DNA of 64,000 bases from an uncultured Ruminococcus sp. (GTDB taxonomy: Bacteria > Bacillota > Clostridia > Oscillospirales > CAG-272): contig CAZULC010000003.1 in the NCBI GenBank assembly GCA_964621165.1, positions 30,633-94,632 on the forward strand, written 5' to 3'. A model generated the notes under the pieces. The model was not told the DNA's origin and did no database searches. It saw nothing but the letters and a program-made list of their open reading frames with translations. Made by a program: the position numbers and the translations under genes. This document shows positions 10,463 to 63,508 of this stretch, one piece after another (position 1 is the first letter of the stretch; each line of letters begins with the position of its first letter).

Positions 10463-11001
10463 TGAAGTACACCATAAATCTGTATTTTGACAGGTAAACA
10501 GAGGAAAAACTGTCATATCTCGCAAAAAGTACAGCCGAAGAAACAGCCAGTGATAAAATTTCCGGATACAGCGTCCGACCATACCTCACATTAGCCTGCT
10601 TCAATGACGTTGACGAGCCGCAGTGTATAAGTCTGCTGAAAAGTTTTGCCAAAAGCCTTAAGGTCATATCCGTGAAAATCGGCTCCGTGGGAATGTTTAC
10701 CGACAGCAGCACTCTTTTCGGCATGCCAACCCTGACCGCCGGAATATTCCGTTTCCAAAGCGAGCTTCACGAAATCATGACGGACTTCGACAAAACCGGC
10801 TGGACCCTCTTTTGTCCTGACAACTGGTCGCCACACTGCACACTCGCATATACCTTGGAAGAAGGAAACGAAATCTTCCTCAGGGCGAGCAGGGTACTTC
10901 TGCAAAAATTCCGCCCCATGACAGGTGAGTTTTCGTCAATCGGACTTGTGAACATCACCCCTCCCGTAAAGGAAATCTTGGAGACCGAGTTGTCCCGGTA
11001 A
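10463..11001 (+). pseudogene. 2H phosphoesterase (LigT / 2'-5' RNA ligase-like) with in-frame TAA
   Basis: ATG 10463 gives MKYTINLYFDR, then TAA at 10496..10498. The same frame continues TEEKLSYLAK...RPYLTLA...PHCTLAYTLEE to 11001. The second HxTx motif is intact (HCTL) and the first is degenerate (YLTL). Confidence 0.7.
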
Positions 11002-11006
11002 AAATT

Positions 11007-11069
11007 CAAGCAATACTTGCAATAATACAAGCAATACTTGCAATAATACAAGCAATACTTGCAATAATA
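11007..11069. repeat. perfect tandem repeat, 3 x 21 bp (CAAGCAATACTTGCAATAATA)
   Basis: Units at 11007-11027, 11028-11048 and 11049-11069 are identical. Each contains a small CAAG-CAATA-CTTG hairpin. Sits between convergent genes. Confidence 0.95.
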
Positions 11070-11107
11070 AAGGAAGCCAGCCGCATCCACGGTAAAAAGC
11101 TTCCTTT
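11069..11107. terminator. bidirectional hairpin between convergent genes
   Basis: AAAGGAAGC (11069-11077) / GCTTCCTTT (11099-11107) with T/A runs on both sides. The loop is long (21 nt). Confidence 0.5.
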
Positions 11108-11131
11108 TATTATAATTATTATAATCGGGAT

Positions 11132-15360: not shown

Positions 15361-15367
15361 AATTAAA

Positions 15368-15410
15368 CCCGCGGGAAATGTACATACAAATACTTCCCGC
15401 GGGATTTGTA
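15368..15410. terminator. bidirectional terminator
   Basis: CCCGCGGGAA (15368-15377) / TTCCCGCGGG (15394-15403), a 10-bp stem between convergent genes. Confidence 0.75.
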
Positions 15411-15459
15411 TGCTTCTCAGCTCACGCAATGGTCTGAACTCGTCAATATCATACCATAC

Positions 15460-16420
15460 TCACGATAATACTGACGATAATACTTCATAATTCACATCAA
15501 AGTTGTGGCTGTGACTGCTCTTTACAATAAACTCCACCCGGGAAACCGCTTCTTCGGCTTCATCATTCCTTCCGAGACGGTACAGACAAGCCGCAATCTC
15601 AAGGTAATAAGCATATTATTTGGAGTTCGTCCCGCCTATCTCATATGAGTCATATGAATAATCGTTATCCTTCATGAACATTTCCACCTCAGCCGCCGCC
15701 TGCCTGAAGGATTTGAGCGCTTTTTCATAATTACCGACCTAAAAATATCCTTTTCTTTCCTGTGCGAAAGCAATGAACAGTTCCTGATTTTCGATAATTT
15801 TCCACTCTGACGCTTCCTTGAGCCGATCTCCCCCTTGAGAAAATACGAGGTCACGCGCATTCTGTCCTGAAGCATGTATGGGTACATATACGGAAGCGAT
15901 TCAACCATTTTTTTGGCTTCATCATATTTGTCTAAATCAAGAGAAGCTGAAGCAATCATTTCCTTGCAGCGGCAGATACAGAAAATATCGTTTGATTAGG
16001 ATATTATTTTATTTCCAATATTCAAGAGTTTGTCAAGCAATTCATTTCTGTCAACTATATACTGACGTTATAAATTGAGAAGCTCCGTTTTCAGTTTATC
16101 CGACGACGGGTACTGGGCAATGCCGCCAAGCAGAATTTTCTCCGCTTTTTTAAAGTCACTGAAAAAAAATAATTATATGATTCAATTCTGATGTACTCGA
16201 TCCTATCTTCAATCTCCTCCGCGTTGTAGTTGAACAGCGTATCCAGCGATACCTTGAAGAATGCCGCGATGGCCGGAATCAGGGTCATATCCGGGTAGGA
16301 CGCCGCCATCTCCCAATTCGAAACCGCCTGAGGGGATACGTTGAGCTTGGAAGCAAGCTGATCCTGAGTCAGACCCCGCATTTTGCGAAGCTCGCGTATT
16401 TTGTTTTCTAAATTAATCAT
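15460..16420 (-). pseudogene. XRE-HTH / TPR-repeat regulator, multiply disrupted
   Basis: Intact HTH (MINLENKIRELRKMRGLTQDQLASKLNVSPQAVSNWE). Downstream TPR-like sequence (DFKKAEKILLGGIAQYPSSDKLKTELL, LDLDKYDEAKKMVESLPYMYPYM, GNYEKALKSFRQAAA, YYLEIAACLYRLGRNDEAEEA) is spread over all three frames with several stops. Shifts occur at T8 and A6 runs. Confidence 0.65.
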
Positions 16421-16636
16421 ATAAAAAATACCTATCAAGTATTGTCTGGCGCGCACCTTACGTTTATATTTTACATCCACGGGAAGAAAAAATCACCAAC
16501 GGGATTTTTGTGTTTTTTTCAACCTTTGGTTGTACCGGTTGAATGCGAAAAATAAACACGAAAAATTTACCGATTATATTTGACTTATTTCGGCAAAAGA
16601 TATAAAATATATAGGTTAGAAATAATTTGTCAGGAG

Positions 16637-18826: not shown

Positions 18827-18866
18827 TAACATTAATCAAAAAACATATTATTGAGTCAAGAAAGTA

Positions 18867-23462: not shown

Positions 23463-23571
23463 ATGTATGAAAACAACAACCCACTCGCGACTGAGAAAAT
23501 AGGGAAGCTCCTGCCGAAATACGTAATTCCCAGCGTCATATCACTGCTGATCGGCTCGCTCTACAACATAA
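23463..23571 (+). pseudogene. 5' fragment of a MATE efflux transporter gene
   Basis: MYENNNPLATEKIGKLLPKYVIPSVISLLIGSLYNI is a typical MATE N-terminus. Similarity stops at about codon 36 and the frame ends at 23645. Preceded by a TTGACT / TATAAT-like promoter near 23310-23345. Confidence 0.6.
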
Positions 23572-23833
23572 GTGAAGAACCGTTTTCGTTCTCGTTAGAC
23601 CCCATAGCTTTGCGTCGCCGTTTTTCAACGGTTTTGCAACAATAAGAAATTATTCTATTGTATTGCAGAAATTTTAATACCATACCGATCGGAACCGCCG
23701 CGAACTCAACCTTTCTGAGCCGCTACGTAGGTCCTTTCTTGAACCCTCTGTTGCTTTCCCTTTCGACGTATACAATATACCACACCCCATCAGCTTTGTT
23801 AAGTGGTTTTGGAAAGATTTTTTAAAAATTTTT

Positions 23834-24764: not shown

Positions 24765-25148
24765 ATGAAAACAATAGAACGCCTGCCAGATGCGGAGCTT
24801 GAAGTTATGCTGATTCTGTGGCACAATCAAACGCCAATGACCGCTGGAGACATAACAAAACTTCTCGCGGATACACACAGCTGGAAAAACGCAACGGTCC
24901 ATGTGCTGCTCGATCGGCTTGAAGAACGCGGATTCGTTTGCTGTGACAAAACCGGTTTCCGGCATCTGTTTGCGCCTGCCATATCGGAAGAAGACTACCG
25001 GCGGGGCGAGGAGCGGACTCTGATGAAGCGGTTTTTCGGCGGGTCTGCCAAGAACATGATTGCTTCATTGCTGAACACGGACGGTTTATCCGATGACGAC
25101 CTCGATGAACTGTCAGCAATGCTGAAACGTCGCAAAGGAGGAAACTGA
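24765..25148 (+). CDS. BlaI/MecI/CopY family transcriptional repressor
   Basis: 127 aa: LPDAELEVMLILWHNQTPMTAGDITKLL... winged helix. Its stop overlaps the start of the M56 gene (TGATG). Confidence 0.85.
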   Translation: MKTIERLPDAELEVMLILWHNQTPMTAGDITKLLADTHSWKNATVHVLLDRLEERGFVCCDKTGFRHLFAPAISEEDYRRGEERTLMKRFFGGSAKNMIASLLNTDGLSDDDLDELSAMLKRRKGGN

Positions 25149-28100
25149 TGGCAATTCGCGATTTTTTCATCGGCATTCTTGAATTGAACATCGGAATGTC
25201 GCTTCTGATTCTGCTCATGTTGGCACTGTTGAAGCTGATTGGCGGAAAATTTACGGCAAGATGCCGCTACATTTTGTGGACGCTCGTAATAATCCGGCTT
25301 GCCCTGCCATTTGGCTTCGGAATTCCTGCCATTATTGAGCTTCCAATTGGGGTGGAAACCCAGTCTCAGACGCCGGATGAACAGCAGCCTGTACAATACC
25401 CGCCGGATTACGCTCCCACATTTTCCGCATCTTCTGCTGTTCCCGTAACGACCGGCAAGCCGCTGCAGCTTCAGGAACCAGTAATGATTCCGGAGGTCCC
25501 CGAGACTGACCCGACGACTTCCGGACAAAATCAATCCATGACTTTGGAAAAAGCGGTAACATACTTGTCGTACCTGTATCTCACTGCGGCGGCGGTATAT
25601 CTTCTGTGGATTTTTCCTTCCTATTTATTATATACCTTTAAAATCACACGATGGGCAAAAGAGCCAGACGAAAGGACCCGGGCGGTTTATGATTCCGTTT
25701 GCGTCAATCAAAAAATCAGGCATGCACCGCGGCTTCTTATATCTTCTGATGTGAACAGCCCCATTGCCTTCGGACTTGTGAAAAGAAAAATCGTCCTGCC
25801 GGATATATTTCTCACGAATGAGGGGCTTGCGGGCACTTTGTCCCATGAACTGACTCACTGTAGGCGTGGAGATCTGTGGATCAAGGCTTTCTCGCTTCTT
25901 GCGCGGGCGTTCAACTGGTTCAATCCACTGGTTCACTGGGCCGCCATGCGTTGTGAAATGGAAATGGAACTGTCCTGCGACGAAGCTGTTCTTGCTGGGT
26001 GCGGAGAGGACGTCCGTGCGGCTTATGGTGATGTGATGCTCGACATAATACGTCAGTGCAGGCGCAAGGGCGGTGTGCTGACGACTCATTTCAATCCCAA
26101 AAAACGTGCGGTGAAGGCCAGATTTATAAATATAATGTACGGTTCGGGCAAGCGGCGGGGACTGTGGCTCATTGGGGCGTGCGTTGTACTGTGCGTGACA
26201 GCAGGAGCTGTTGTGGCGTGCAAAACTGTCAAACCGGATGAAAAACCTGACGCGGAAGCAGTTGACATGCCCGAAACCGATTCCGGCGAGAATCCAGAGG
26301 AAAACTCCGACGAGCTTGATTTGCTTGTCAGCAAAATTTACGAGCTCTCTCTCTCGCCCATCATGAAATGCTTTGCCACCGGATGCGGAAATGTGGAATA
26401 CGACATCAGCAGCTCGCAGTATACCGAAGACAACGAATACTATATAGTTACGGACCCATGGTTCGCTGAAGCCGGCGTCGACTCGGTGGAGTCATTGAGA
26501 AACTATCTCCTCGGCTATTTTTCACCTGAATATACCGACCGGTTGCTCGATTCCTCCGTCACCTTCCGGGATATAAACGGGAAGCTGTGTATTCATTTGT
26601 ATGACGGCGGTAACTCAGCCGTTTATGATTTCCCCGAATTTTCCGCGGAACACATAGATGACAGCAGAATCAGGCTGACCTGTTTATCAATCTGTAATAT
26701 GCCCCTCGTTGAGCCGGAGCCGTATCTGATGGAGTTTGAATTCGTTCAGACGGATGGCGGTTGGGTTATTGATGAAGCTCCGTCTTTGCTCGATTATTTA
26801 TGGATACGGTTCGGCGTGGAAAATGAGCTGACCGCCTCGCTTGTCGAAAAGATAAGTCAAGCCGCAGAGTCGCCTGTACTGAACTGCTTTGCCGTCGGTT
26901 GTCAGGCAGTCGGGCGCAGCGTTGAGAGTTCCGGCGTTCCTGATTACTATATGATCAATGATCAATGGTTCGAAGAAAACGGAATCAACTCAGTAAAGGC
27001 GGTGGAGGACTACCTGCTCACCAGCTTCACACCCGATTGTGTGGATAGACTGTTCTCGGAGAACCCAAGCCTTTTCAATGATATTGACGGACGCCTCTGC
27101 ATATCCGACTACGTGTCAGAAAATTCGGCTGTATATGAATTCCCAGACATTACGGCTTCATATACCTCAGACGACAAAATCTGTCTGACCTGCTACGTCA
27201 CACCGGGCGCGTCCTTCGAACATCCCGATCCATACAAGTTGTATTTTTACTTTGTCAAACAGGACGGCGAATGGCTGATTGATTACACGCCTTCGGTCAA
27301 GGATCTCGTAAGACTGCGCTTCAGTGAGAATATTTTGTGGGAATATAACGAGCTGTACGGAGAATTTCTCGCCACAGCTTTCGCGCCCTATACAAAGCTC
27401 CTCAGCGCGTCGGAATACCTTGACCTCGACTCAAACGGCGTACCAGAGCTGATCCTGCAGGATTTGGCTTATGGTGCATGCGAGATTTACACCATAGAAA
27501 ACGGAGAAGTCCGCGCCTTTTACAGTGGGGACAGCATTTTCACCCATTACTCCGACGAGCGAAAACCGCTGGCTCCACCGTCCGAAAACGCTAAAGACTT
27601 GATGTTTTACGGCGCCACAACGTTAATGTCCTCCGACATCCAGCCCACATTCCTACCCGCCGAGGAAAAGTCCACGGGGAGAAAAGGGTACATGCTCTGC
27701 TCCGTCTGGGGCAATGATATGACGTGTAACTGGGAATACTATTTCTTCACACAGGGAAGTGACGGCTTGCTGACGGTTGAACTTCTGGAAATATACCGCG
27801 CTGAGGCGGTGAACTCCAACACATCAAACGGCTGGGAATTCTACAGCGGACTTAATATGCTCTCGGGCAGTCAGTTTATGGCTGAGATAACCGAACTGTG
27901 GCGCAGCTTTGCCGACGAATACGGTGTGAGCTTCACGCAGGAGAACACAATGTGTCCGCTGACCCATCTGACTGAAAAGACTCCGCCAATCCACCTGCTG
28001 CTCGATATTCTTGAGTCCCTTGACGTGGATGAGCCAATGGTTCGTATCGCGAAAACAATACCGTCAACGCAAATGTCCATAAGTTCGGCCAATGGCTGGG

Positions 28101-33978: not shown

Positions 33979-34073
33979 GTAGTCAAGAGGTGCGGCGTGA
34001 AGATATAGTTGATCACAGTTTATTTAGCTGTCAGCCGACCGGAATTCTTTCATATCTATTTGTGGAGGAGAAA

Positions 34074-39508: not shown

Positions 39509-40564
39509 CTATTCACAGAAGTCAATGGCCGAAATGTCATACCACAATAAATTTGCGTATTCTGCGGCTAAATCCCGTTCCCACCGCTCAGCCGGCTTAA
39601 ACATTGTAACCGTAAGTTTATTTTTCTTCTTTATCCATTTACCGACAACCTCGCCGTCAATCATAAGCGCGGGCATAACAATTCCAGCAAGGTTGAAGAT
39701 TCCGCGAATGTTGTCCTGACTGATAAATAAACTCTCCGTCTTCTCGTGAGCCAAAAGAAGCTGGTCAAACCCCGCAAGAAACATGCACCGCGTTATGGAT
39801 TCGCAGCAAATCCGGTTGTTTTCAATATAATAATAGATTTTGCCCCCGCATTCCACGCTTGAAACAGGCAGACGGGAAAGCCATGCCTTGATTTGCGCGG
39901 CAGTTGTACGAAAATAATACATAGCGTCATGTATATTCGAGGGACCCATGTGCGTGAAATATCGTCGGGCAATCTCAAGCATTGCTTCATCTTCCGGCAA
40001 AGGTGAAAACGGAGGAGCGAGACAAAACGTCTTCTTTTCCTTTACAACATAATTGATGAACCCGCGCTCACATAATTCCCGTATACCGCCGCCCCATCCG
40101 TCAAACATGCAGCTTTCCTCAACCTCCGTCATACCGGCTTTGCGGCAGAAAATTTTCAGCTCTTCCCGGGTCATTTCAGAATCCCTGAGGGAGTCTAAAA
40201 TAAGGTTCGCAAAATACTCTGACGCTTGGGCGTTAGTGCAAACTTGTCCCGCTGATTGTGTAGTAGGTATACCAATTCCAGTCACGCCGACGGTAATCAC
40301 GCTCATTTCTGCAGTGGATGAACAAAGGCAGGTCTTACTCTGAAAACACATGCACCGTACCCCTGACAGTCCAGTTTTTCACCAGTCCCGTTCCCATAGC
40401 GTCCTCGCGAAAATCCGAGCACACCTGATTCTGAGCGAGTGGAAGACATTTCCCATAAACTGAGCCTGCACCCCGCATAAATCATGCAGCACGGTCTTTG
40501 TATCCGAAGGTTCCAATAAATGCTGATTCGCCATCTGACGAATTTTAATCCCGTCCAAAGTCAT
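39509..40564 (-). pseudogene. YcaQ-like winged-helix DNA-binding (DUF1006) protein, frameshifted
   Basis: The N-terminal 61 codons (40564-40379), the conserved GLVKNWTVRGTVHVFSE block, and the C-terminal 280 codons (40351-39509) lie in three different frames. One shift is at an A5 run near 40375. Confidence 0.65.
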
Positions 40565-48074: not shown

Positions 48075-49858
48075 ATGACTGAAATAAAGAAGCAAATCAA
48101 ATACGTCATTCAGGCGACAAAGCTGATTTATATGGCGTCGGGGAAATATTACATATGGATTTTTCTCCTGAGTCTGCGCCTGTCCGTTCTGCCGTATGTA
48201 CCGATGTTTTTATGACGTTCCCTATTGAATGCTTTGACGGCGGAAAGTAAAGACAGTCATGCAGTGGTATTTTTCATAGGATGCTACTGCCTCAGTGTTT
48301 TTCTGTCGGGACTATTCAACCGTATCTATAGAATAGTTTCCTACCAATATAACGACAGAGTGGACTATTATATAGATAATCTTCTGATTGAAAAGATTGC
48401 GGGGGCGGATATTTCCTTCTTTGACAGCAGTGAAATTGCGGACAAGCTCAGGAATGCCTCCAACTATATGCGCGGCACAACAAAATCAATCGTCATGTTT
48501 ATATTCTACATAATGCAGAGCTTCCTCAGAATTGCGGTTTCCGTTTTGATTATGATAGAACTGGATTATAAAGTCCTGCCGCTCATTCTTCTGTTTAGAG
48601 TGGTTCCGATATTGACGCAGAAAAAGAACAGGGAGGAGCAGTACAATTTTAATAAAGAGCAGTTAATGAGACAGAGAAAAATGGATTACATAAAAGAACT
48701 GTTTTTCAGTGGCGCAAAATATGAGCTTCGTCTGTATGTATGAGTTTAAGGATTTTTTACTCGGAAAATATAAAAATGAATGGGATGAGTATTATTCCCA
48801 AAACAAAAAGCTGCAAATCCGACTCTGAGGGCGTGAATGTGCTTCTGTATTTATGGAAGTTGGTATCGAAGCGATTGCGATTTTCTTCTCGGTGGAAAAA
48901 ATGCTTTCGCAGACGACGACAGGAATCGGCTACGTCACCTATTTTATTTCCACTGTAAATCAAATCAAGACAAATCTGCTCGGACTTTCGAATATTTATA
49001 CGCGCTTTACCCAAGAATGTACACAGCTCGACGATATTATGGACTTCATTTCCTACACCCCGAAAACAGAGATCGGCGGCAGTATGTGTCCGAAGATGAA
49101 TTGTATCCCGAGAACCACATTAAAAAATGTGTCATTCAAATATCCGAATTTCGACGAATATGTTTTGAAAAATTGCAGCTTTACCATAAATCCCAGAGAA
49201 AAAATCGGTCTGGTTGGAAATAACGGCGCCGGAAAAAGTACGATTGTGAAATTGCTGTGCAGATTCTACGATCCGACCGAAGGAGTCATTGAAGTAAATG
49301 GAGGTGACGTCAGGGAATATGAGCTGTCAGCACTGCGGCGGCTGTATGGTGTTGTTTCAGGATTATGTGCGGTACAGCTTTTCCTTGCGGGAAAATATCG
49401 CATTGTCGGATATTGAAAAGAAGGATTGATGACCGGAAGATAAATGCCGCAGTGTCCCGCAGCCATGTGTCCGACTTTGCAGGGGAATGGGATAATGCTA
49501 TGGAAGCATCTGACCCGGCAGTTCGATAAAGAGGGCAAAGAGCTGGCCGGAGGTCAATGGCAGAGTGTTTCTTTGGCGAGAGCGTTTTTCCGTGACGCGC
49601 CGGTTGTACTGCTTGACGAACCATCCGCCGCACTTGACCCCATTGCGGAGTATGAGATTTTTGAAGATTTCGCAAGGCTGTCAAAGGATAAAAGCGCGGT
49701 TTTGATTTCCCACCGGCTGTCGAGCATTACGCTGTGTGACAGGATTTTAGTTTTGTCGGACGGACACATCATCGAGCAGGGTTCCCACGCGGAGCTGATG
49801 AAGCAGAACGGGAGAATACGCTCGACTGTTCAGCCTTCAGGCGAGCAAGTATATGTGA
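48075..49858 (+). pseudogene. ABC exporter, fused permease/ATPase (pair C, gene 2), heavily disrupted
   Basis: ATG 48075 behind AGGAGG. In-frame TGA at 48213-48215 (PMFL*RSLLNALT), frameshifts near 48740, 48840, 49370-49440 and 49815. GNNGAGKST and LLDEPSAALDP are readable. True stop inferred at 49856-49858 (YARLFSLQASKYM*). Confidence 0.75.
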
Positions 49859-53969: not shown

Positions 53970-54636
53970 TTACTTATCTTCTACTAAGTTGTTGTGCGGA
54001 ATGTCGCAGGTAAAAATCCCATGAACCTCACAATAATCGCCGACCATCACAGGGTCATAGGGCTTGCTGTCAGAATCATTACTTCCCGCTAAAGCCGGAA
54101 CCGGTGTAGGGTTATCCAATCCAAGTTTTTTTGCCACTCTTGCGCGTAAATCTGGTTATTTCGGTAAAGAACAATATGCGTCATCTTTACCGCTTGTATC
54201 ATCAATGTGGTAATATGCCTCAACATGATAATCATCATTATGCGCTCCTCTTGCGAACCAACCGCAGTCTGTGCAAATATACGCGTTCCAGCACAACTCC
54301 TGAACGGTGCTACAGTCTGATCCATGAAGACGCGGGAAATAACATGATGCGTAATAATCGTCTTCCAAGCAACTCTCACTGTAGCAAAGCGTGGCTTCTT
54401 TACCGCATAAAGGACATTCTACATAATAATAAGATCTATTCAAACCATAACCATGACAAATAGTTGCAGTTCTGCTCAAGATGTTCAGCACAAATATCTG
54501 CTGCGTGAATTGCTTCAGAATAATAGTCAACAGGTTCCGGACTGATATTGTCAGACGCACAAACCAAAATTACTGCTGAAACTGCAACAAGAACTATCGC
54601 TGATATCAATATTGCTGTTTTTTTAGCTTTATTCAT
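53970..54636 (-). pseudogene. membrane-anchored Cys-rich hypothetical protein, disrupted
   Basis: Signal-anchor MNKAKKTAILISAIVLVAVSAVILVCAS (frame 1). The Cys-rich body ...ICHGYGLNRSYYYVECPLCGKEATLCYSESC...CTDCGWFARG is in another frame (shift near 54440-54480). In-frame TAA at 54156-54158, then 61 more sense codons to TAA 53970-53972. Confidence 0.5.
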
Positions 54637-54822: not shown

Positions 54823-55854
54823 TTAGTTCAGCTCAGCGAAGTACTTGATTGTACGAACCATCTGGCTGGTGTAGGAGTTCTCGTTGTCGTACCAGGAAAC
54901 AACCTGAACTTGATATGTGTCGTCATCAATCTTTGTTACCATTGTCTGAGTGGAATCAAACAGTGAGCCGTATCTCATTCCAACAACGTCGGAAGAAACG
55001 ATAAGCTCGTCGTTGTAGCCGAAGGATTCGGAAGCCTGAGCCTTCATAGCGGCGTTGATTGAATCCTTTGTAACGTCCTTGCCCTTAACAACAGCAACGA
55101 GGATTGTGGTGGAACCGGTTGTTACAGGAACTCTCTGAGCGGAGCCGATGAGCTTGCCGTTGAGTTCGGGAATAACAAGTCCGATAGCCTTTGCGGCGCC
55201 GGTGGAGTTGGGAACGATGTTAGCGGCACCTGCTCTTGCACGTCTCAGGTCGCCCTTTCTCTGAGGACCGTCGAGGATCATCTGGTCGCCGGTGTATGCG
55301 TGAACTGTTGTCATGATACCAGAAACGATCGGATAAGCGTCATTCAGAGCCTTAGCCATAGGAGCGAGGCAGTTTGTTGTGCAGGAAGCAGCGGATATGA
55401 TCTGGTCATCGGGTGTAAGAGTCTTCTCGTTTACGGAATAAACGATTGTCTTCAAGTCATTGCCGGCGGGAGCGGAGATAACAACCTTCTTTGCGCCTGC
55501 GGTGATGTGAGCCTGGGACTTTTCCTTGGATGTGTAGAAGCCTGTGCATTCGAGAACTACGTCTACGTCAAGCTTTCCCCAAGGGCAGTCTGCCGCGTTC
55601 TTTTCAGCGTAAATCTTGATTTCCTTGCCGTCAACAACGATGGAATCTTCTGTGGAAGTGACGGTGTGCTTGTTTTCGCCGATCTTGCCGAGGAATGAAC
55701 CCTGAGCTGTGTCGTACTTCAGAAGATGAGCGAGCATTGCGGGGCTGGTAAGGTCGTTGATAGCGACAACCTCGTAGCCTTCAGCGTCGAACATCTGACG
55801 GAAAGCAAGACGACCAATGCGGCCGAAACCGTTAATAGCAACTTTAACTGACAT
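54823..55854 (-). CDS. gap: type I glyceraldehyde-3-phosphate dehydrogenase
   Basis: [15 protein letters not shown], active site SCTTNCLAP. Start at ATG 55854 behind GGAGG (the ORF-track start 55869 is a TTG). Confidence 0.95.
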
Positions 55855-56041
55855 TTGTGTTTCCTCCAAATATATATGATATTTCTTTGGGACAATATTA
55901 TATTAGATTTCCCTTCGAGTATATATTTTACCTCATTTTTTGGAAATATACAATAGTTTTTAGGAAAGTTTTTTAGATTTTACCATTTATATAAAAAAAT
56001 AACAAAAAATTGTGACAATTCGTTAAAAATGGGGGTAAATA

Positions 56042-56074
56042 AAATACCGACTCTTTGCGTTAGAATCGGTATTT
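56042..56074. terminator. hairpin terminator downstream of the 56120..56914 gene
   Basis: ATACCGA...TCGGTAT inverted repeat flanked by A/T runs. Confidence 0.5.
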
Positions 56075-56119
56075 TACGTTTTCGATTAATCAGTGCGTTA
56101 TCGCTCTAAGTTTGTGGTA

Positions 56120-56914
56120 TTATTCAACGATTTCGCCGCGGGCAATAGCTTCCTTTTCAGCTTCCACCTTAGCTCTGAATTCAGCACGTCTCTTTGCGGA
56201 TTCTTCGGCACGCTTAGCAAGCTCCTTCTGACGTGTTACGATTGCACGGGAGATCTGGTCGCAGTACTTGTCGATGTCGGCGCCGTATGTAACGCAGAGT
56301 TCAAGAGCCTTGCCGCCGTCTGTCTTGATAATCTTGAATACATAATACTTGACCTGAACGGTGCGGTCTTTCTTCTGGTATTCGTAGACCTTTTCCTCGA
56401 TTTCGGCGTGGTCAAGCTCGTTGAATGTGAACTGAGCCGCAATCTCGCTGTCGATGGTCTCGTCTGTCATGGAGAAGCGGCGTCCGTATACGAACATCTT
56501 CTCGCTTGTGAAAATCAGGTTGACGCCGGTGAAGTAGTTGGTTCTGTCAACGCCGTCTTTGCCTTTTTTGTAGTACAGGGGAGTTTCCTTTGCGTCAAAG
56601 TCGTAGCCATTCAGATTGATAGGCTTGAGCATCTTGAGGAAGCTCTTTTCGTAAACTTCAAATTTCTTTTCGCTGAGTTCCTGAAGGTTCTTGATTCTTT
56701 CGGCTATCTGGAAGTCGATGTCACTGTCCGTTGATTTTCCGCCGGAGGTCAGAGCAACCACGAGTGCGCCTACAATAGCGACGACGATACCGTAAAGTCT
56801 GAGGTACCTGACGCCGAGCATAATAAGGCCGACGATGATTACAATCCAGCCGATGAGCGAGGGAATTGAAATCGGCGGAGCTGTGAAATATTTGAGATTG
56901 CGTTTGGTTTCCAT
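56120..56914 (-). CDS. hypothetical two-TM membrane protein with cytoplasmic domain and charged coiled C-terminus
   Basis: METKRN... with two hydrophobic helices (LIGWIVIIVGLIMLGV, IVVAIVGALVVAL), a ~170-aa soluble domain, and a KELAKRAEESAKRRAEFRAKVEAEKEA tail. No family recognised. Confidence 0.6.
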   Translation of the reverse strand: METKRNLKYFTAPPISIPSLIGWIVIIVGLIMLGVRYLRLYGIVVAIVGALVVALTSGGKSTDSDIDFQIAERIKNLQELSEKKFEVYEKSFLKMLKPINLNGYDFDAKETPLYYKKGKDGVDRTNYFTGVNLIFTSEKMFVYGRRFSMTDETIDSEIAAQFTFNELDHAEIEEKVYEYQKKDRTVQVKYYVFKIIKTDGGKALELCVTYGADIDKYCDQISRAIVTRQKELAKRAEESAKRRAEFRAKVEAEKEAIARGEIVE

Positions 56915-57044
56915 AACAACTCTCCATTCAAATAAAATTTTGATGATAACGATAAAACGCACATTATCAATATATGTATAATATCACAAATTTCGGTGAA
57001 TGTCAAGACTATTGGCGGTTATAAATGATAAATAGTTATTTCTG

Positions 57045-57071
57045 CGAAAAAAGCACACCTGAAATTTGTGC
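57045..57071 (-). terminator. rho-independent terminator of the greA-like gene
   Basis: On the minus strand, GCACA aatttcagg TGTGC followed by TTTTTT. Confidence 0.7.
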
Positions 57072-57138
57072 AAAATGACGATGAAATATGCTTCTTCTTC
57101 TCGAATCAAGCATAACCGCGGATTTTTATGCCCTGTTC

Positions 57139-57639
57139 TCAATTGATATTTAGCGAGTCGTCGTCAATGCCCTTTGTGAGTTCGCGAATTGTCACATAAT
57201 ATGAATATTTGTCGTTTACCTTTATCAGCACTCTGTCGCCCTCATGATGACCCAGAAGAGCTTGGCCAAGAGGGGATTCCTTTGAAATTTTGTCGTTTAA
57301 AATGTCGTGGCGCAGGGGAGTTACAATTGTGATTGTCCGTTCCTCTTCGTCATCCTCATACCATAACCTGACGCTGTCGAACAGCCCCACGGTTTCCGCG
57401 TCTGACTCGTAGTTGATAACCACCGCGTTGTCAAGCAGGGACTTGAGGTAGCGGATCCTGGAGTAATTGCGGTTCATGTCACGCTTGGCGCTTCTGTATT
57501 CGTCGTTTTCGGATAAGTCGCCGAATGCCCGGGTCCGCTGAACCTCCGCTATGCACTTAGGCGTCTCCACCTGCTGGCGGTACTGTATTTCTTCCTTGAT
57601 TTTGTTGATCTCAACTTCTGTAAGCTCATGTGAAGGCAT
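57139..57639 (-). CDS. greA: GreA/GreB family transcription elongation factor
   Basis: 166 aa: ...RTRAFGDLSENDEYRSAKRDMNRNYSRIRYLKSLL coiled-coil finger plus C-terminal globular domain. Confidence 0.8.
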   Translation of the reverse strand: MPSHELTEVEINKIKEEIQYRQQVETPKCIAEVQRTRAFGDLSENDEYRSAKRDMNRNYSRIRYLKSLLDNAVVINYESDAETVGLFDSVRLWYEDDEEERTITIVTPLRHDILNDKISKESPLGQALLGHHEGDRVLIKVNDKYSYYVTIRELTKGIDDDSLNIN

Positions 57640-57738
57640 GATTTATTCCTCCCAATCTGTATTGGCTTTGTATCAGATAAATTATATCACCCCGGAGATA
57701 AAAAATCAAGACTGAGCGGAAAAAATTCGCTTTAGCTA

Positions 57739-57767
57739 TTGCATTTTCAAAAAAACCGTGATATAAT
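57739..57767 (+). promoter_or_regulatory. sigma-70 promoter of tRNA-Arg
   Basis: TTGCAT (57739-57744), 17 nt, TATAAT (57762-57767). The tRNA begins 14 nt later. Confidence 0.7.
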
Positions 57768-57780
57768 TATCAAAGCTGAT

Positions 57781-57854
57781 GTTTCCGTAGCTCAGTTGGA
57801 TAGAGCGACCGCCTCCTAAGCGGTAGGTCGGGTGTTCAAGTCACCTCGGGAACG
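57781..57854 (+). tRNA. tRNA-Arg (anticodon CCT)
   Basis: Hand-folded cloverleaf: acceptor GTTTCCG/CGGGAAC, D arm GCTC...GAGC, anticodon stem ACCGC/GCGGT with loop CTCCTAA, T arm GGGTG TTCAAGT CACCT. No encoded CCA. Confidence 0.9.
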
Positions 57855-57860
57855 TCAATA

Positions 57861-57890
57861 GTCAGAACCGCACATGATTCTGACTTTTTT
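57861..57890 (+). terminator. rho-independent terminator after tRNA-Arg
   Basis: GTCAGAA (57861-57867) / TTCTGAC (57878-57884) followed by T6. Confidence 0.85.
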
Positions 57891-57984
57891 CTTTTCTTCA
57901 CAGCAGTGTTGCTTTTTGCATCGATTTGTGCTATCATATATATAAATAAAAAATACTGCGGACCATACTGAAAGGATAAAAAAT

Positions 57985-59070
57985 ATGACTGGCTATACTT
58001 TCTCGGGAATCGGAACCGGTATGGGCAGCCTGTCGCTTCTATCGAACGCCAAATCCCGCTCAATCAGTCCGGAAAACTTTGACGGAAAAAAGGGAAGAGG
58101 CGGCATGGCAGAGGACGGCACAGGAAAGAGCTGCGCAAGGGATCTTGGAACCGGATGGAAAATATCTCCCTCAGTGAGAATCGAGCCTCACACAACCTAC
58201 ACAATGGCACAGATCGAGGGACCGGGCTGCATCAACCACATATGGCTGACCCCCGCAGGCGCACCCGGACGCTTCGTCATAATCAGAATCTACTGGGACG
58301 ACATCACAGTCCCATCGGTTGAATGTCCCCTCGGCGACTTTTTCGCAAATGCCTACGTTCCGGAGTTCAGACAGATGAGCTCGCTGGCAGTCTGCGTGAA
58401 TCCCCGCAACGGACTCAACTGCTACTGGCAGATGCCATTTCGGAAAAACTGCCGCATAACCGTGGAAAACCTCGCCGACGACGTGTTCACCCTCTATTAT
58501 CAGGTTGACTACCAGCTGACCGATATTCCCGACGGCATGGGATACTTCCACGCACAGTTCCGCCGTACAAATCCGGTGCCGTATAAATCCGTGCATACAA
58601 TCCTCGACGGAGTGAATGGCAAGGGTCATTATGTCGGAACCTACATGGCGTGGGGAGTCAACAACAACGGCTGGTGGGGCGAGGGGGAAATCAAGTTCTA
58701 CATGGACAACGACAGCGAATACCCCACAATCTGCGGTACGGGAACTGAGGACTATTTCTGCGGCGCGTATAACTTCGACAACGAACACAGATATGAGCCA
58801 TTCTGTACCCCCTACACTGGAATGATCCCATATAAACCCGACGGACTGTATAACTCCCAGCAGAGGTTCTCCCTCTACAGATGGCATATCACCGACCCAA
58901 TCCGCTTCGACGAAAATCTCAGGGTCACGATTCAGGACTTAGGCTGGCGCTCCTCCGGCAGGTATCTCCCCATGCAGGATGACGTATCCTCAGTCGCCTT
59001 CTGGTACCAGGACAAACCTAATGGAACCATGCCGCCCCTTCCTGACCGCGATTTCCTCGAGATAATCTGA
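57985..59070 (+). CDS. DUF2961 (GH172-like) domain protein
   Basis: 361 aa. ...SRSISPENFDGKKGRGGMA...GPGCINHIWLTP... and the WGEGEIKFYMDNDSEYPTICGTGTEDYF pattern typical of DUF2961. Confidence 0.7.
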   Translation: MTGYTFSGIGTGMGSLSLLSNAKSRSISPENFDGKKGRGGMAEDGTGKSCARDLGTGWKISPSVRIEPHTTYTMAQIEGPGCINHIWLTPAGAPGRFVIIRIYWDDITVPSVECPLGDFFANAYVPEFRQMSSLAVCVNPRNGLNCYWQMPFRKNCRITVENLADDVFTLYYQVDYQLTDIPDGMGYFHAQFRRTNPVPYKSVHTILDGVNGKGHYVGTYMAWGVNNNGWWGEGEIKFYMDNDSEYPTICGTGTEDYFCGAYNFDNEHRYEPFCTPYTGMIPYKPDGLYNSQQRFSLYRWHITDPIRFDENLRVTIQDLGWRSSGRYLPMQDDVSSVAFWYQDKPNGTMPPLPDRDFLEII

Positions 59071-59141
59071 CCCGAATCCGCAGACAGACTGTTTTCTGAT
59101 TATTACGATAATTCTATTCAACAGAACGGGAGAGATAATTA

Positions 59142-59663
59142 ATGGATAAAAAAATTAAAAGCGAATGGAGCGGATTCTATATAGACAAAGTTATTAACAG
59201 ACGGGAAAATATAGTTGAAAGAACAAAAATTGATAAGCAAAGCTATGTTTTTTTCGCGGAAATCATGAGGTATATCTCATCCGCAGGCATTCCTGACAAG
59301 AGAAACAGAAAAATCCTGAAGCATCGCTACGACAAAGAGGTGTATGATTTGAACACAAAGGAAGGAGTAGCCGTTTATTCGACATGGCAGCTGTGCAGTG
59401 ATATGGAGGACAAACGCTGGGTGGGTACAAACGCGACATTTGAAATTCAGCCGTCCGGAAGCAGGCTCTGCTTTTCAGCCCATGCCCATCCCTATCTGCC
59501 GCGCACACCCTCGCCTGACGATTATCTCATTATCGCAAAGATGAAAGGCAGATCTGTAAACTATATAATCGACCGCTTCGTCTGCGAGGAATATTCTCTT
59601 GACATGTTCAAGCCTTATGAGATAAAAACAAAACCGAAAACTCCGTCTCAGCCTCAGCCCTGA
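59142..59663 (+). CDS. small stand-alone JAB/MPN (JAMM motif) protein
   Basis: 173 aa. HAHPYLPRTPSPDD fits HxHx7SxxD exactly. The 3' end overlaps the convergent methyltransferase gene by 56 nt. Confidence 0.55.
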   Translation: MDKKIKSEWSGFYIDKVINRRENIVERTKIDKQSYVFFAEIMRYISSAGIPDKRNRKILKHRYDKEVYDLNTKEGVAVYSTWQLCSDMEDKRWVGTNATFEIQPSGSRLCFSAHAHPYLPRTPSPDDYLIIAKMKGRSVNYIIDRFVCEEYSLDMFKPYEIKTKPKTPSQPQP

Positions 59664-60225
59664 CGCAAAGTCCCGCTTCCATTATATATCCTGCCATTTC
59701 CTCACGACCGGCGGGGTATATTTTTATTTTCCTGTCGCCATACCTGATGAATTCATCGGTACTTTTGTCCACTGACAGGACGAAGCTTCCGCCGGGGTTC
59801 AGCAGTCCTGCCGCTTTCCTGACAGCATTACGCTTGTCCTCGAAGTGCATGAAGGTCAGGGAAGAGTACACAATGTCAAACCTGCGTGAGAATTCGTACT
59901 CCATAAAATCCCCGCAGACAAGGCTTGCGTTTTCCATCCCTGCCAGATTCACCCTCGCGCGTTCGATTGTCTTCGGTGAAATGTCAATTCCACAGAAAGT
60001 CCCAAACAGTGGACAAACCTTCACCGCAAGTCTGCCGCTTCCCACACCTATTTCGAGGGCGCTTTTGCTTTTGTCCGGAGCCAGCAGCTCAATAAATTTT
60101 TCGCCGTCCCACTTGTCCATGTATTCGCGAAGGGGGGCGGGGTCATGGACGGGATCATTTCCTTCGTCAATCAGGGCGTCATAGTGCCGGATCACATCAA
60201 TATTTCCATTCATATCAGATTTCAT
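59608..60225 (-). CDS. class I SAM-dependent methyltransferase
   Basis: Motif I ALEIGVGSGRLAVKV, post-I GIDISP, and the LNPGGSFVLS motif. Confidence 0.8.
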   Translation of the reverse strand: MKSDMNGNIDVIRHYDALIDEGNDPVHDPAPLREYMDKWDGEKFIELLAPDKSKSALEIGVGSGRLAVKVCPLFGTFCGIDISPKTIERARVNLAGMENASLVCGDFMEYEFSRRFDIVYSSLTFMHFEDKRNAVRKAAGLLNPGGSFVLSVDKSTDEFIRYGDRKIKIYPAGREEMAGYIMEAGLCVRAEAETEFSVLFLSHKA

Positions 60226-61585
60226 CCTTTCTGCCCTTGTTTATGTACGGTAGAAACAGCGCAGGAGATACCGCAAGCGCAATCCAGTCAGCCGCCGGCG
60301 TCGCCCACGCTATTCCTTTGTTTCCGATGTATCTGTTGAAGAATATCATCAGCGGTATGTCAAGACTGCCTTTTCTCAGAAGCGAAAGCACAAGCGGCTG
60401 AATTTTCTGCTTGGTCGCCTGAAACGTGGTGATAATCATGAAGTTTACGGCAGTGGAAGGACAGGTGAAACATATGATTATAAGAAAAGTACGTCCGACC
60501 ATAACCGTTTCGCCGTTGTTTATAAAGCATCCGGTAATCGGCTCGGCAAACGTGAACAGAACAACAGTCGCGGTGCAGGCTATGGTCAGTGTGTATGTCA
60601 GCGTCACCCGTATGGATTGGCTCATTCTCGTCCGGTTGCCTGAGGCGTAGTTGTAGGAAATCAGCGGCATAACCCCCTGAGTCATACCCTGAGCCACACA
60701 GAACGCAATCATGTCAATTTTCTTCGCGATTCCCATTCCCGCCATAACTTCGTTGGAATATGAAGTCACAAGCCGATTCAGGACGCTGTTTGACAGACAG
60801 CCGAGCATCATCATTATAAAGCTGGGCAGTCCACCGACGATAACTTCACTGGGAATTCCGCCTGACAGACTGTAGTCCCGCAGATTCGGCCTGATTGCAG
60901 TCTTGTTTCTGATTCTGTAGATAAAAATGAAGAAATAAGCGGCCGCTGCGGTGTTCGAGAGCATAGTAGCCACCGCCGCACCGGTTATCTAGAGCTTAAA
61001 AACGAATATAAACACCGGGTCGAGAATCATGTTCAGTACACCGCCGAAGGCAACACCGAATCCGGCTTCCTTTGCGTATCCCTCGGTCCGGATCAGGTGC
61101 GCAATTTCCGCGTTGAGTACTGTAGGAACCGCACCCGATGTAATGGTCAGAAAACATAACTCGAGCAATATGTGTAAGTGTCGTCATCCGCTCCGAGAAG
61201 TCCGAGTAAATCCCGACGGAACAGAAGGACTCAGAGTCCATACAGCAGTGATACCGCAATCGACGTCCACACACAGAAAGCGGCGGTTTTCTTAGCCCCA
61301 TCCTCATCCTTGTTTGCCGAGACAGCGTGCGATTTTTCCGGCTCCACCGATTCCGAACAGATTTGAAAGTGCGGTCAGCACCGCAAAAGCAGACATGGCA
61401 ACCGTGGCGGCGGCAACCTGATCCGGGTCATCAAGCTGACCTATGAAAAACGTGTCCGCCATGTTATAAATCACCGTGATTATCTGACTTATGACTGTCG
61501 GCACCGCCAGAGACAGAACCGCACGTCTCACCGGCATCTTCCTGAATAAAAAGACGTTTTCATGCATTTTCATTACTCCCTTCAC
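60215..61585 (-). pseudogene. MATE family efflux transporter, disrupted
   Basis: The N-terminal (61585-61304) and C-terminal (60973-60215) parts share one frame, but the middle is readable only in another frame (DEDGAKKTAAFCVWTSIAVSLLYGL*VLLFRRDLL...). Two compensating frameshifts (near 61300 and near 61165 at a T4 run), in-frame TGA at 61231-61233 at a likely Trp, and in-frame TAG at 60989-60991 (FVFKL*ITGAAVATMLSN). Confidence 0.75.
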
Positions 61586-62141
61586 TTTTTAAACCTGAAA
61601 TCAGGCACATTACCGTAGTCTTAAAGTTTTCTTCTGCGTCCGCCGGATAATGTCTGAAAAAGCCAGCGTTTTCACAGGAAACAAAGCCGTGAACAACGCT
61701 CTTGAATACTCTTTGCCAGTGAATGCGGCGTACCTCGTCAAGTCCATACTGTGACAACACTTCAAAAATCGGCTCCGCTATGGCAGTGGACGTTTCTCTA
61801 AGAACATTCTCAGGCAGAGTAGGCAGGGAAAAGTAACGCTGTATAACCCTCGCCTCTCCTTCGCATAATTTCTGTAAGCGGCGACTAATGCAAGCACGGC
61901 TTCGTCCCGCTCTTTTCCTTCGATTGCGTGAACCAATGTGTCTCTGAGCTGAAATGCTGCGTACCTGCTGACCTCCGCCGCTACCTCATCCGCGTTTTTC
62001 TCATGATTGTACAGCGAAGGCGCCTTGATTCCCAGCTCAGCCGCGAGTTCCCGCATTGGAATGACAGGATTCCCGCTTTTTTCAACCATCTCCACAGCCT
62101 TGGCAAGTATGACCTCCCGGCTGATTCCTTTTTTGTGCCAT
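61560..62141 (-). pseudogene. TetR/AcrR family regulator, frameshifted
   Basis: ATG 62141 is out of frame with the HTH (KKGISREVILAKAVEMVEKSGNPVIPMRELAAELGIKAPSLYNH). The shift is at the A6 run (plus-strand T-run 62129-62134). A second shift near 61805 separates ...YSVTF from SLPTLPENVLRETSTAIAEPIFEVLSQYGLD. Confidence 0.7.
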
Positions 62142-62235
62142 AAATTCTCCGAAACAAAAAACTAACGATGTAAGTATTATACACTAACGCCGTTAGTCAG
62201 TCAATATTATCGGAGAAATTTATAATTAACAGAAG

Positions 62236-63123
62236 TCAGCTTTTGTCCGAGACCAGCGTGTCCCGCACCATAAGAGCAGTGCTTGCCGCCATTATTGCCA
62301 GCGCAACATAAAACTGCACCCCGGGACGCTCGCCAACGATAATCATGCTGAACATAACCCCTAGGAAAGGTGCGATTGAGTAAAACGCGCTTGTTTTGGC
62401 AGCCCCCAAGTCCGCCTGAGCCATGATGTAGAAGTTGATGCTCATGCCGTAAGCCACAAAGCCGAGAGCCATTGAAGCTAAAATCCACATGAATTCAGGA
62501 ATACTCTCGCCTGAACATAACGCTATAACAAGACTTCCCAGCCCCGAGAAAATTCCCTTGATGACGACAATTTCCTCCGAGCTTTTGTTGCTTATCATCT
62601 TTGTGCAGTTGTTCTCAAATCCCCAGCAGAGACAAGCCCCGAGAACAAACAGCGATCCTTTGTTCAAAGCGAACGCACCGGCTCCTTCAAAGCTGAGAAT
62701 CGCGCTTGCCGCCGTCACAAGAACGATAACCAGCCATAACCGCTTCGATATAGCTTCCTTAAAAATAATCAGCGCAATCAATGAAGTAGCCACAATCTCG
62801 AAGTTGTTGAGAAGTGAAACGTTGGCTGAGTTTGTGTATGTAATGCCAAACATAAGCAGAATTGGGGCAAAAATGTCCAGCACCACCATTCCGATGGTGT
62901 AGGGAAGCTCCTTTTTCGTAAGAGGCTCTTTTTTGTTGCCTTTGCCGAACAGCTTCCGCATAAGTCCGTATAAAATCATCCCCACACCGGCCCCAAGATA
63001 GAGCAGGGAAGCCATCATCACCGCTCCCACATGCTCCATCAGCAGCTTCGACAACGGTACGTTTATTGCATACAAAGCCGCAGCCATCACCGCGAACGCC
63101 ATGGCAAGTTTTTTCTCTCTCAT
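62236..63123 (-). CDS. DMT superfamily (EamA-like) transporter
   Basis: 295 aa, ~10 TM, with two EamA-like halves. Confidence 0.8.
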   Translation of the reverse strand: MREKKLAMAFAVMAAALYAINVPLSKLLMEHVGAVMMASLLYLGAGVGMILYGLMRKLFGKGNKKEPLTKKELPYTIGMVVLDIFAPILLMFGITYTNSANVSLLNNFEIVATSLIALIIFKEAISKRLWLVIVLVTAASAILSFEGAGAFALNKGSLFVLGACLCWGFENNCTKMISNKSSEEIVVIKGIFSGLGSLVIALCSGESIPEFMWILASMALGFVAYGMSINFYIMAQADLGAAKTSAFYSIAPFLGVMFSMIIVGERPGVQFYVALAIMAASTALMVRDTLVSDKS

Positions 63124-63191
63124 AAAATCACGCTCCTGTAAGCAAAGTCATAATTTGTATTCCTTCCTGAAATCAAACGGCATAATTTACC

Positions 63192-63508
63192 TCACCTGTT
63201 TTCTTCAAACACCACATCGGAAGGGTATCTGCTTTCGTTAATCTTCGGCTTAACCTTGATGACCTTTTCCAAATCAATATCGTATAAATTTGCAATCGTG
63301 ATAGCGTAATATATGACTTCCCACACCTCTTCGTCAATTGTCCCGATAATATCCTCGTCATCAACCGCTTTGAGACCTTTTCTCATCGCCTGTGACAGCT
63401 CGCCCACCTCCTCCGTCAGCTTTAGAAAATAGTCCTTCGCCAGCTCCGGGTGGTAATCCTTCTGCCTGATGAAATTTTGCAGATACTTGACCGTAGTTTT
63501 CCGTCCAT
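63192..63508 (-). pseudogene. MazG-like nucleotide pyrophosphohydrolase, start-proximal frameshift
   Basis: GGAGT RBS plus ATG 63508 (MDGK...) is out of frame by one base with TTVKYLQNFIRQKDYHPELAKDYFLKLTEEVGELSQAMRKG...WEVIYYAITIANLYDIDLE. An A4 run (plus TTTT 63497-63500) would restore the frame if it were A5. It may still be expressed from the GTG at 63407, but without the EExxE motif. Confidence 0.6.

Follow-up and report, generated by a model that had tools for sequence, protein, structure and literature searches.

The 64,000-nucleotide stretch of contig CAZULC010000003.1 that we analyzed (the window), from an uncultured Ruminococcus sp. (assembly GCA_964621165.1), carries 11 firmly disrupted loci among its 51 genes (∼21% of the genes and 19.8% of the bases), and we consider it highly probable that these are genuine, lineage-specific pseudogenes that arose by ordinary gene decay at an unusually high local density. 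The loci are a LigT-like 2H phosphoesterase, an XRE-HTH plus TPR regulator (XRE-TPR), four ATP-binding cassette half-transporters (ABC#1–4), an AlkZ/YcaQ-like DNA glycosylase, a Cys-rich secreted or membrane-anchored protein, a MATE efflux transporter, a TetR-family regulator, and a MazG-like pyrophosphohydrolase. They contain at least 41 disabling lesions, that is, ∼20 in-frame stop codons and 21 frameshifts, all within 12.7 kb; the remaining 40 genes (43.5 kb) contain none. Several lesions (2–8) are present in nine of the 11 loci (range across all loci, 1–8), the lesion density among the pseudogenes is 1.7 to 6.3 per kb, and all three stop codons occur (TAA, 9; TAG, 5; TGA, 5).

An earlier note, made by a model from the letters alone, had proposed at least 13 disrupted loci: 11 of these are firm and one (a MATE 5′ fragment) is weak, and the separate ABC fragment that it listed was not found. 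Its description of the lesions as frameshifts together with all three stop codons is correct, as are the positions it gave for the A6 runs at 30573–30578 and 62129–62134 (coding strand), the A4 run at 63497–63500, the T4 run at 47783–47786, and the TGA at 61231–61233; the TAG that it reported in LSGGQ is at 30256–30258. The open reading frames (ORFs) of 940, 1076, and 611 aa that it cited as uninterrupted do run without interruption.

Results

Distribution and reproducibility of the lesions

The strongest argument against an artefact is the distribution of the lesions. When 41 lesions are placed at random on the 51 genes in proportion to length, a mean of 26 genes are hit, and in 100,000 simulations the count did not once fall below 17. 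In the window only 11 genes are hit, a concentration beyond chance; the observation of the earlier note, broken genes beside intact ones, is confirmed. Homopolymers of ≥5 nt underlie only five of the 21 frameshifts (runs of 5–8 nt); the intact coding sequences (CDS) hold 48 runs of ≥6 nt and seven runs of ≥7 nt, none of which is disrupted. Substitutions that create a stop codon make up about half of the lesions.

As an independent check we used seven Logan contigs, the product of a k-mer-based assembler, from run SRR10165008; Logan builds unitigs from k-mers that are seen at least twice. Over positions 1–23150, 24864–53452, and 55607–63629 (∼58.6 kb) the contigs match the window with 100% identity, and this covers 10 of the 11 firm loci (L052, LigT; L051, XRE-TPR; L001, ABC#1 and ABC#2; L049, AlkZ; L050, ABC#3 and ABC#4; L033, MATE, TetR, and MazG); the Cys-rich locus is outside the fetched contigs. 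Exact copies of the window proteins occur only in the Logan contigs of SRR10165008 and in one unannotated NCBI contig (195,220 bp); two exact-protein look-ups gave no match at all, and a literature search for SRR10165008 found no paper.

Assembly errors would be expected to scatter over genes by length, to concentrate at homopolymers, and to differ between assemblers; the lesions here do none of these. Because they are the same in the independent assembly, have frameshifts that lie mostly off homopolymers, are about half nonsense substitutions, and are clustered in a few genes, the lesions are, judged from the two assemblies, very probably real and not a sequencing artefact; the opinion of the earlier note that generic sequencing error is unlikely to be the sole cause is upheld.

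Intact orthologues in the nearest relative

The nearest available relative is represented by two contigs, L054 and L034, of metagenome GCA_037193895.1 that are syntenic with parts of the window. The gene order in L054 is NrdR, LigT, P-type ATPase, sigma, XRE, XRE-TPR, HAD, MBOAT, DHHW, GNAT, a 503-aa gene, and rpsF-ssb-rpsR; in L034 it is EamA, MATE, methyltransferase, a hypothetical gene, GH172, and GreA. No called gene in these 23 kb looks broken, and the lengths match those of the intact window genes. Among them are intact syntenic orthologues of LigT (179 aa, the same length as the window locus) and XRE-TPR (337 aa) in L054 and of MATE (453 aa) in L034; in the orthologous window segments these three genes are broken, and a TetR pseudogene is present that is without counterpart in L034. 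Nucleotide alignments to the relative position the LigT, XRE-TPR, and MATE lesions exactly. The lesion load of 1–8 per gene and the three orthologues that are intact at the same positions in the relative support the proposal of the earlier note that gene decay is ongoing.

The spacing between EamA and MATE is ∼670 bp in the window (61560–62254), where it contains the TetR pseudogene, compared with 30 bp and no TetR remnant in the relative (L034 649–680); the absence of TetR from the relative's spacer implies either complete deletion there or acquisition here. The relative also has two tandem XRE-type paralogues of 337 and 342 aa (L054 10001–12290), both of which align to the one broken copy in the window (15396–16544); the single copy suggests that the gene was duplicated in the relative or that a copy was lost here by recombination.

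No closer source of orthologues emerged when MalQ was used as the probe. Among GTDB species representatives the best matches have 55–60% identity (herbivore-gut 'Clostridia bacterium' and Oscillospiraceae metagenome-assembled genomes) with no shared synteny; in a scan of JGI metagenomes the best match has 57% identity, again with no synteny and no orthologues for the region of ABC#1–4 and AlkZ.

The disrupted loci

Each disrupted gene was confirmed by three-frame reading, by Pfam searches of the ORF pieces, and by Pfam searches of bridged ('repaired') translations. In the repaired loci, family homology runs across the lesions at near full length, as expected for pseudogenes, and the repaired MATE, AlkZ, XRE-TPR, and Cys-rich proteins can be aligned over 97–100% of their length with intact homologues, which number in the hundreds or thousands; a near-identical intact allele of MATE, AlkZ, or XRE-TPR was not found in a collection of 5.8 billion proteins.

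The LigT-like pseudogene (10462–11001, + strand) has a single stop and no indels: the stop is TAA at codon 12 (10495–10497), which aligns to GAT in the intact L054 orthologue. In addition, the His of the first HxT motif has become Tyr (TAC at 10579–10581; CAC in the orthologue); the repaired translation matches 2_5_RNA_ligase2 at 33 bits. A 21-bp tandem repeat, AATACAAGCAATACTTGCAAT, at 11003–11069 (3.2 copies, 97% matches) separates this pseudogene from the 3′ end of the P-type ATPase gene, and two Logan contigs end and begin within it (11036/11040).

The XRE-TPR pseudogene (about 15400–16420, − strand) has at least seven lesions. From its 5′ end these are a +2 insertion in an A/T run near 16163–16172, TAA at 16068–16070, TAA at 15996–15998, a −1 deletion near 15828–15831, TAG at 15739–15741, TAA at 15616–15618, and a −8/+2 rearrangement at a 12-bp tandem repeat with a stop at 15460–15462. 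The repaired protein covers 98% of intact homologues of 335–360 aa (best, P0252 with 74% identity).

The four ABC pseudogenes are all on the + strand, and in all four the repaired translations match ABC_tran over positions 1–136 of 137; the fragments gave split matches. ABC#1 (28767–30561) has three lesions: TAG at 28932–28934, a frameshift near 30207, and TAG at 30256–30258 in place of the Gln of the LSGGQ signature. ABC#2 (30564–32351) has four: a frameshift in the A6 run at 30573–30578, TAA at 30866–30868, TAA at 31202–31204, and a frameshift near 31451. The ATPase motifs of ABC#2 at 31980–32130 are also degenerate, with a signature that reads SIGQWQ instead of LSGGQ and a Walker B motif that reads ILDELSASLD instead of ILDEP.... 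ABC#3 (46254–48071; GC 42.8%) has six lesions, that is, TAG at 46767–46769, TAA at 47558–47560, and frameshifts near 47170, 47723, 47786 (T4), and 47834. ABC#4 (48075–49858; GC 43.4%) has eight, with TGA at 48213, 48826, 49427, and 49430 and frameshifts near 48740, 49356, 49489, and 49813. All four stops in ABC#4 are TGA, two of them adjacent (TGATGA, 49427–49432); the stops in XRE-TPR are mostly TAA.

An intact ABC half-transporter pair (33990–37722, + strand; 634 and 611 aa), paralogous to the broken pairs with 23–40% identity, serves as an internal control; at this identity the intact paralogues are too distant to be a guide to ancestral codons, and that use was dropped. Directly upstream of the broken ABC#1/ABC#2 pair is a gene for a BlaI-type repressor followed by that for the 1076-aa Peptidase_M56/BlaR1-like protein (24765–28378), which is unusually long, with a large extra C-terminal region.

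The AlkZ-like pseudogene (39509–40564, − strand) has four lesions: frameshifts near 40391–40394, 40258–40259, and 40216–40219, and TAA at 40335–40337. The repaired translation matches the Pfam AlkZ-like family over positions 3–324 of 329 at 103 bits, compared with 66 bits for the largest fragment, and covers 99–100% of intact homologues of ∼350 aa at 55–66% identity. The Cys-rich pseudogene (53970–54636, − strand) has two lesions, a frameshift within 54439–54473 and TAA at 54156–54158. It belongs to no Pfam family; its intact fragment matches a family of ∼210-aa proteins, and the repaired protein can be aligned with P0242 (213 aa, 48% identity) over its entire length, across both lesions, with the stop opposite Leu.

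The MATE pseudogene (60215–61573, − strand) has four lesions: a +1 insertion near 61309–61313, TGA at 61231–61233, a −1 deletion near 61148–61150, and TAG at 60989–60991; its 3′ end also has an in-frame 9-nt deletion. The repaired protein covers 99% of >2,500 intact proteins of ∼450 aa (best, 81% identity). The TetR pseudogene (61560–62141, − strand) is located upstream of MATE and overlaps its start; it has two lesions, a +1 insertion in the A6 run at 62129–62134 and a frameshift near 61835–61844, and the repaired translation matches TetR_C_33 over positions 2–100 of 103. The MazG-like gene (63192–63508, − strand) has one frameshift, in the A4 run at 63497–63500 after codon 4; the repaired translation scores 25.8 bits against MazG (cut-off, 22). 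With its single lesion, this is the least certain of the firm loci.

A possible MATE 5′ remnant (23463–23603, + strand), of ∼36–47 codons with the rest of the gene deleted, is a plausible twelfth disrupted locus. Its translation is MYENNNPLATEKIGKLLPKYVIPSVISLLIGSLYNI. In tblastn searches with many MATE proteins, residues 1–49 consistently align at this position with a best E-value of 0.02, which is weak, and the remnant was recovered neither by Pfam nor by a hidden Markov model (HMM) for the MATE subfamily. The same HMM, and phmmer with ABC proteins, revealed no MATE or ABC remnants beyond the loci described here. Minus-strand ORFs at 52.0–53.8 kb were considered as a broken gene and rejected, as they are antisense to rpsF-ssb-rpsR.

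Selection, age, and mutation spectrum

For 16 intact orthologue pairs in the window and the relative, the ratio of nonsynonymous to synonymous divergence (dN/dS) is 0.016–0.18, with dS mostly 0.6–1.2; the neighboring intact genes are under purifying selection. The retained genes in these 16 pairs do not have the elevated dN/dS that would signal weakened purifying selection; a pairwise dN/dS is an average over the two lineages and would dilute any recent rise on this branch. The LigT, XRE-TPR, and MATE pseudogenes have dN/dS values of 0.07–0.165, at the upper edge of the intact range. These low values imply that most of the divergence accrued while the genes were functional, that is, that inactivation is recent relative to the split of the two lineages.

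Relaxed constraint is evident within the pseudogenes themselves, in the catalytic His to Tyr change in LigT, in the degenerate motifs of ABC#2, and in MATE. The repaired MATE departs from 12 of 246 near-invariant columns (one of the 12 is at a repair junction), whereas 40 intact homologues depart from 1.8 on average and from no more than 6; judged from these columns, the changes suggest ∼1–2% neutral divergence since inactivation. For the pseudogenes overall we infer an age of roughly 1–5% neutral divergence. The unequal lesion load (1–8 per gene) implies that the inactivations are of different ages; XRE-TPR and ABC#3/ABC#4 (3–6 lesions per kb) are probably older.

The earlier note had described the substitutions as G:C>A:T transitions where the ancestral codon can be inferred. 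This is sound for the LSGGQ Gln to TAG change in ABC#1, and the LigT catalytic His to Tyr change (CAC to TAC) is likewise a C-to-T transition; as a generalization it fails, because in three cases the stop is opposite a Glu codon (GAA/GAG to TAA/TAG, by G-to-T transversion) and in one case opposite TAT (T-to-A). Its second example, a likely Trp to TGA at 61231 in MATE, is contradicted by the alignment: the column is I/V/A/L in 100 intact homologues, and the codon is GCG (Ala) in the closest orthologue. The GC content of the pseudogenes is 46.6%, compared with 49.8% in the intact CDS, and the most decayed loci are at 41–43%; this low GC fits AT-biased neutral mutation and, equally, foreign origin.

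A 29.1-kb block without counterpart at this site in the relative

A blastn comparison of L054 with the window identified a block at 23223–52340 (29.1 kb, ∼25 genes) for which the relative has no counterpart at this site: there, the 503-aa gene and rpsF lie next to each other in divergent orientation (L054 2999–3052). The block contains six of the firm pseudogenes or remnants (ABC#1–4, AlkZ, and the MATE remnant) together with intact genes for BlaI/BlaR1-like proteins, a LytTR two-component system, an ABC pair, MalQ, a solute-binding protein, and CotH; DUF1653 and PRiA4_ORF3 are encoded there too. Its borders have no flanking direct or inverted repeats longer than 9 nt (9-mers are expected by chance), and no integrase, mobility gene, or tRNA boundary was found in 23223–52340. 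The difference may reflect an insertion here or a loss or rearrangement in the relative.

Gene content of the window

The window has a GC content of 47–50% and a gene content typical of Clostridia, including ThiI, NrdR, several ECF sigma/anti-sigma pairs, BlaI and the BlaR1-like protein, the LytTR two-component system, MalQ, rpsF-ssb-rpsR, GAPDH, GreA, and two tRNAs; an Rfam scan of the window found nothing besides the two tRNAs. The window ORFs that were scanned with Pfam hold no transposase or integrase domain, and there are no insertion sequence (IS) elements in the window. A 280-aa ORF at 56120–56962 (− strand), between GAPDH and GreA, is without a Pfam match, is called as a gene in the Logan contig, and is overlapped by a 213-aa ORF on the other strand; we regard its coding status as putative.

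Positions 1–10400 and the 3.8-kb left flank together form ∼14 kb that are free of pseudogenes; the flank (L052 11037–14871) looks intact and encodes the rest of ThiI, an NAPRTase, two radical-SAM proteins, and an ABM monooxygenase. By a crude ORF-tiling metric the window scores 0.755, compared with a median of 0.851 over 23 comparison loci; this is weak support for decay, as the comparators are rich in mobile elements and the comparison is confounded.

The earlier note had also seen a focus of the decay on efflux and export and their regulators. The enrichment is marginal: Fisher p = 0.015 by gene, and p = 0.053 by functional unit, as the four ABC genes are two heterodimer pairs. Five of the 11 loci (LigT, XRE-TPR, AlkZ, Cys-rich, and MazG) are unrelated to efflux, and an ABC exporter pair, the EamA transporter, and the P-type ATPase are left intact.

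Discussion

Ordinary gene decay would account for these observations as follows. Selection on dispensable functions would have been relaxed at different times; the functions lost would be those of two heterodimeric ABC exporter pairs, a TetR–MATE efflux unit, the XRE-TPR regulator, the LigT-like phosphoesterase, the AlkZ-like glycosylase, the Cys-rich exported protein, and the MazG-like enzyme. Ordinary mutations would then have built up, that is, nonsense changes, indels of 1–2 nt (some at short homopolymers), as well as missense changes that altered catalytic motifs. Decay appears to proceed by functional unit, in that both partners of each ABC pair, and both TetR and MATE, are broken; the failure of one partner may free the other to decay. 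The remains would persist since deletion has yet to remove them; that the pseudogenes are near full length implies that deletion is slow. We infer relaxed selection or drift as the cause, and the unit-by-unit order of events likewise.

Several points weigh against this account or limit its reach. The Logan assembly very probably shares its reads with the deposited genome, so their agreement rules out assembler error and leaves systematic platform error. The analysis covers 64 kb and a 3.8-kb left flank, and a genome-wide excess is beyond that scope; the pseudogene-free first 10.4 kb and left flank fit a uniform rate (P ∼0.08) but are also compatible with a patchy distribution. Close-relative orthologues are lacking for ABC#1–4, AlkZ, Cys-rich, TetR, and MazG, for which lineage-specific inactivation is proposed from family homology. 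Finally, with six or seven of the loci located in the non-syntenic block, some of the signal may stem from acquired DNA that is decaying rather than from ancestral genes. That the window is representative of the genome, with about one-fifth of the genes pseudogenized, the rest under strong purifying selection, and slow removal, is a tentative extrapolation that we consider less likely than not.

Failed horizontal transfers are reportedly a source of prokaryotic pseudogenes (Liu et al. are said to have made this case in Genome Biology in 2004), and the lesions might be the decay of horizontally acquired accessory DNA, brought in on islands and of no use from the start, in a genome with a healthy ancestral backbone. 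About half of the loci (ABC#1–4, AlkZ, and the MATE remnant) are in the block that is absent from this position in the relative, TetR is not in the relative's EamA–MATE spacer, and the most decayed loci have the lower GC that foreign DNA may have. However, LigT, XRE-TPR, and MATE belong to the ancestral backbone and have intact orthologues at syntenic positions; no integrase, tRNA boundary, mobility gene, or att-like flanking repeat marks the block, which also holds intact housekeeping-type genes, e.g., MalQ; the difference at this site may instead be a deletion or rearrangement in the relative; and AT-biased neutral mutation explains the low GC equally well. We therefore treat this as a partial rival for the loci in the block and as no rival for LigT, XRE-TPR, and MATE; as an explanation of the whole it is unlikely, albeit the most serious of the alternatives. 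That the lesions are instead consensus errors in intact genes, from low coverage, unpolished long reads, or homopolymer miscalls, is very improbable. Many purported pseudogenes are assembly errors, and assembler, platform, and coverage inflate pseudogene counts, internal stops included (Cooley and Wright, 2024; PMC11017572); as in such cases, we find internal stops and frameshifts in a draft, metagenome-derived assembly, five of the frameshifts are at homopolymers of 5–8 nt, and the second assembly probably shares the same reads. Unlike assembly errors, the lesions are reproduced by a second assembler at 100% identity, are clustered (1–8 per gene in 11 genes and none in the other 43.5 kb, a distribution that no simulation matches), include 16 of 21 frameshifts away from homopolymers of ≥5 nt and substitutions for about half of the total, and are accompanied by missense decay at invariant or catalytic positions.

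The lesions might also record a burst of mutation, from a mutator genotype or mutagenic exposure (e.g., lost mismatch or oxidative-damage repair), after which selection would have removed all hits but those in dispensable genes. For several stops, a G:C-to-T:A transversion is the change implied, and two of the broken genes, AlkZ-like and MazG-like, are related to nucleotide damage. The spectrum is nevertheless mixed (C-to-T, G-to-T, and T-to-A; +1, −1, +2, and −8 indels) and the events that can be inferred number fewer than 10, by comparison with a relative whose dS is about 0.6–1.6; the window contains no mutS, mutL, mutY, or mutT; the widely unequal lesion loads suggest staggered ages; and several hits in one gene need neutral time after the first hit at any mutation rate. 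We judge a burst to be improbable. Least probable of all is that the interruptions are functional, that is, programmed frameshifting, stop readthrough, an alternative code, or homopolymer phase variation. Phase-variable tracts usually sit near the start of a gene, and in ABC#2 (A6), TetR (A6), and MazG-like (A4) the first lesion is in a short A-run within the first five codons. Phase variation or recoding would, however, be expected to show as one reversible or recoded position, that is, a long repeat tract or a slippery or readthrough signal, which is conserved in orthologues while the rest of the gene is whole. The tracts here are only 4–6 nt long, ABC#2 and TetR carry further lesions downstream, and nine of the 11 genes have multiple lesions. 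The occurrence of all three stop codons as lesions, with the 940- and 1076-aa ORFs free of them, argues against a change of code, and the uninterrupted orthologues and homologues at the lesion sites argue against a conserved recoding signal.

Lineage-specific gene decay, the explanation that we favor, is a known phenomenon, and the window is a well-documented instance of a known process. Pseudogene-rich genomes occur in recently host-restricted or niche-specialized bacteria (Mycobacterium leprae, Sodalis glossinidius, Shigella, and Salmonella Typhi) and in dairy-adapted Firmicutes (Streptococcus thermophilus and Lactobacillus delbrueckii subsp. bulgaricus). As in genomes of the M. leprae and Sodalis type (for Sodalis, see PMC7067036), a high fraction of the genes (11 of 51, ∼20% of the sequence) is hit by nonsense changes and small indels, many repeatedly, core genes remain intact under purifying selection, and transporters and regulators are prominent among the losses. 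In contrast to those genomes, the window has no IS elements and no sign of mobile-DNA expansion, and what is seen here is 64 kb from an uncultured Clostridia lineage in a single sequencing run. Salmonella pseudogenes are for the most part young, have one lesion each, and are soon deleted (Kuo and Ochman, 2010; PMC2916853). The types of inactivating mutation in the window are those of pseudogenes in free-living enterics, in which the degraded ones that persist are likewise peripheral accessory genes with few connections (PMC2916853); unlike the Salmonella pseudogenes, nine of the 11 window loci have 2–8 lesions and are nearly full length, which implies slow removal.

For a bacterium that is not an endosymbiont, a local density of ∼21% of genes, most of them hit more than once, is unusual, and multi-lesion, near-full-length pseudogenes are uncommon in free-living bacteria, where removal is usually quick (PMC2916853). 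For this organism, automated annotation would break the ABC and MATE genes into pieces and list numerous short 'hypothetical' ORFs; such pieces need to be joined and labelled as pseudogenes, and care is needed not to over-count the efflux capacity of the organism. If the pattern is true genome-wide, it would be a natural case of ongoing genome degradation in the Clostridia, at an early-to-middle stage of the Sodalis/M. leprae kind in a member of a gut-type anaerobe community, and would indicate that the lineage has lately moved into a restricted niche or has a very small effective population size; with intact syntenic orthologues at hand, it would also allow the neutral mutation and deletion spectra to be measured.

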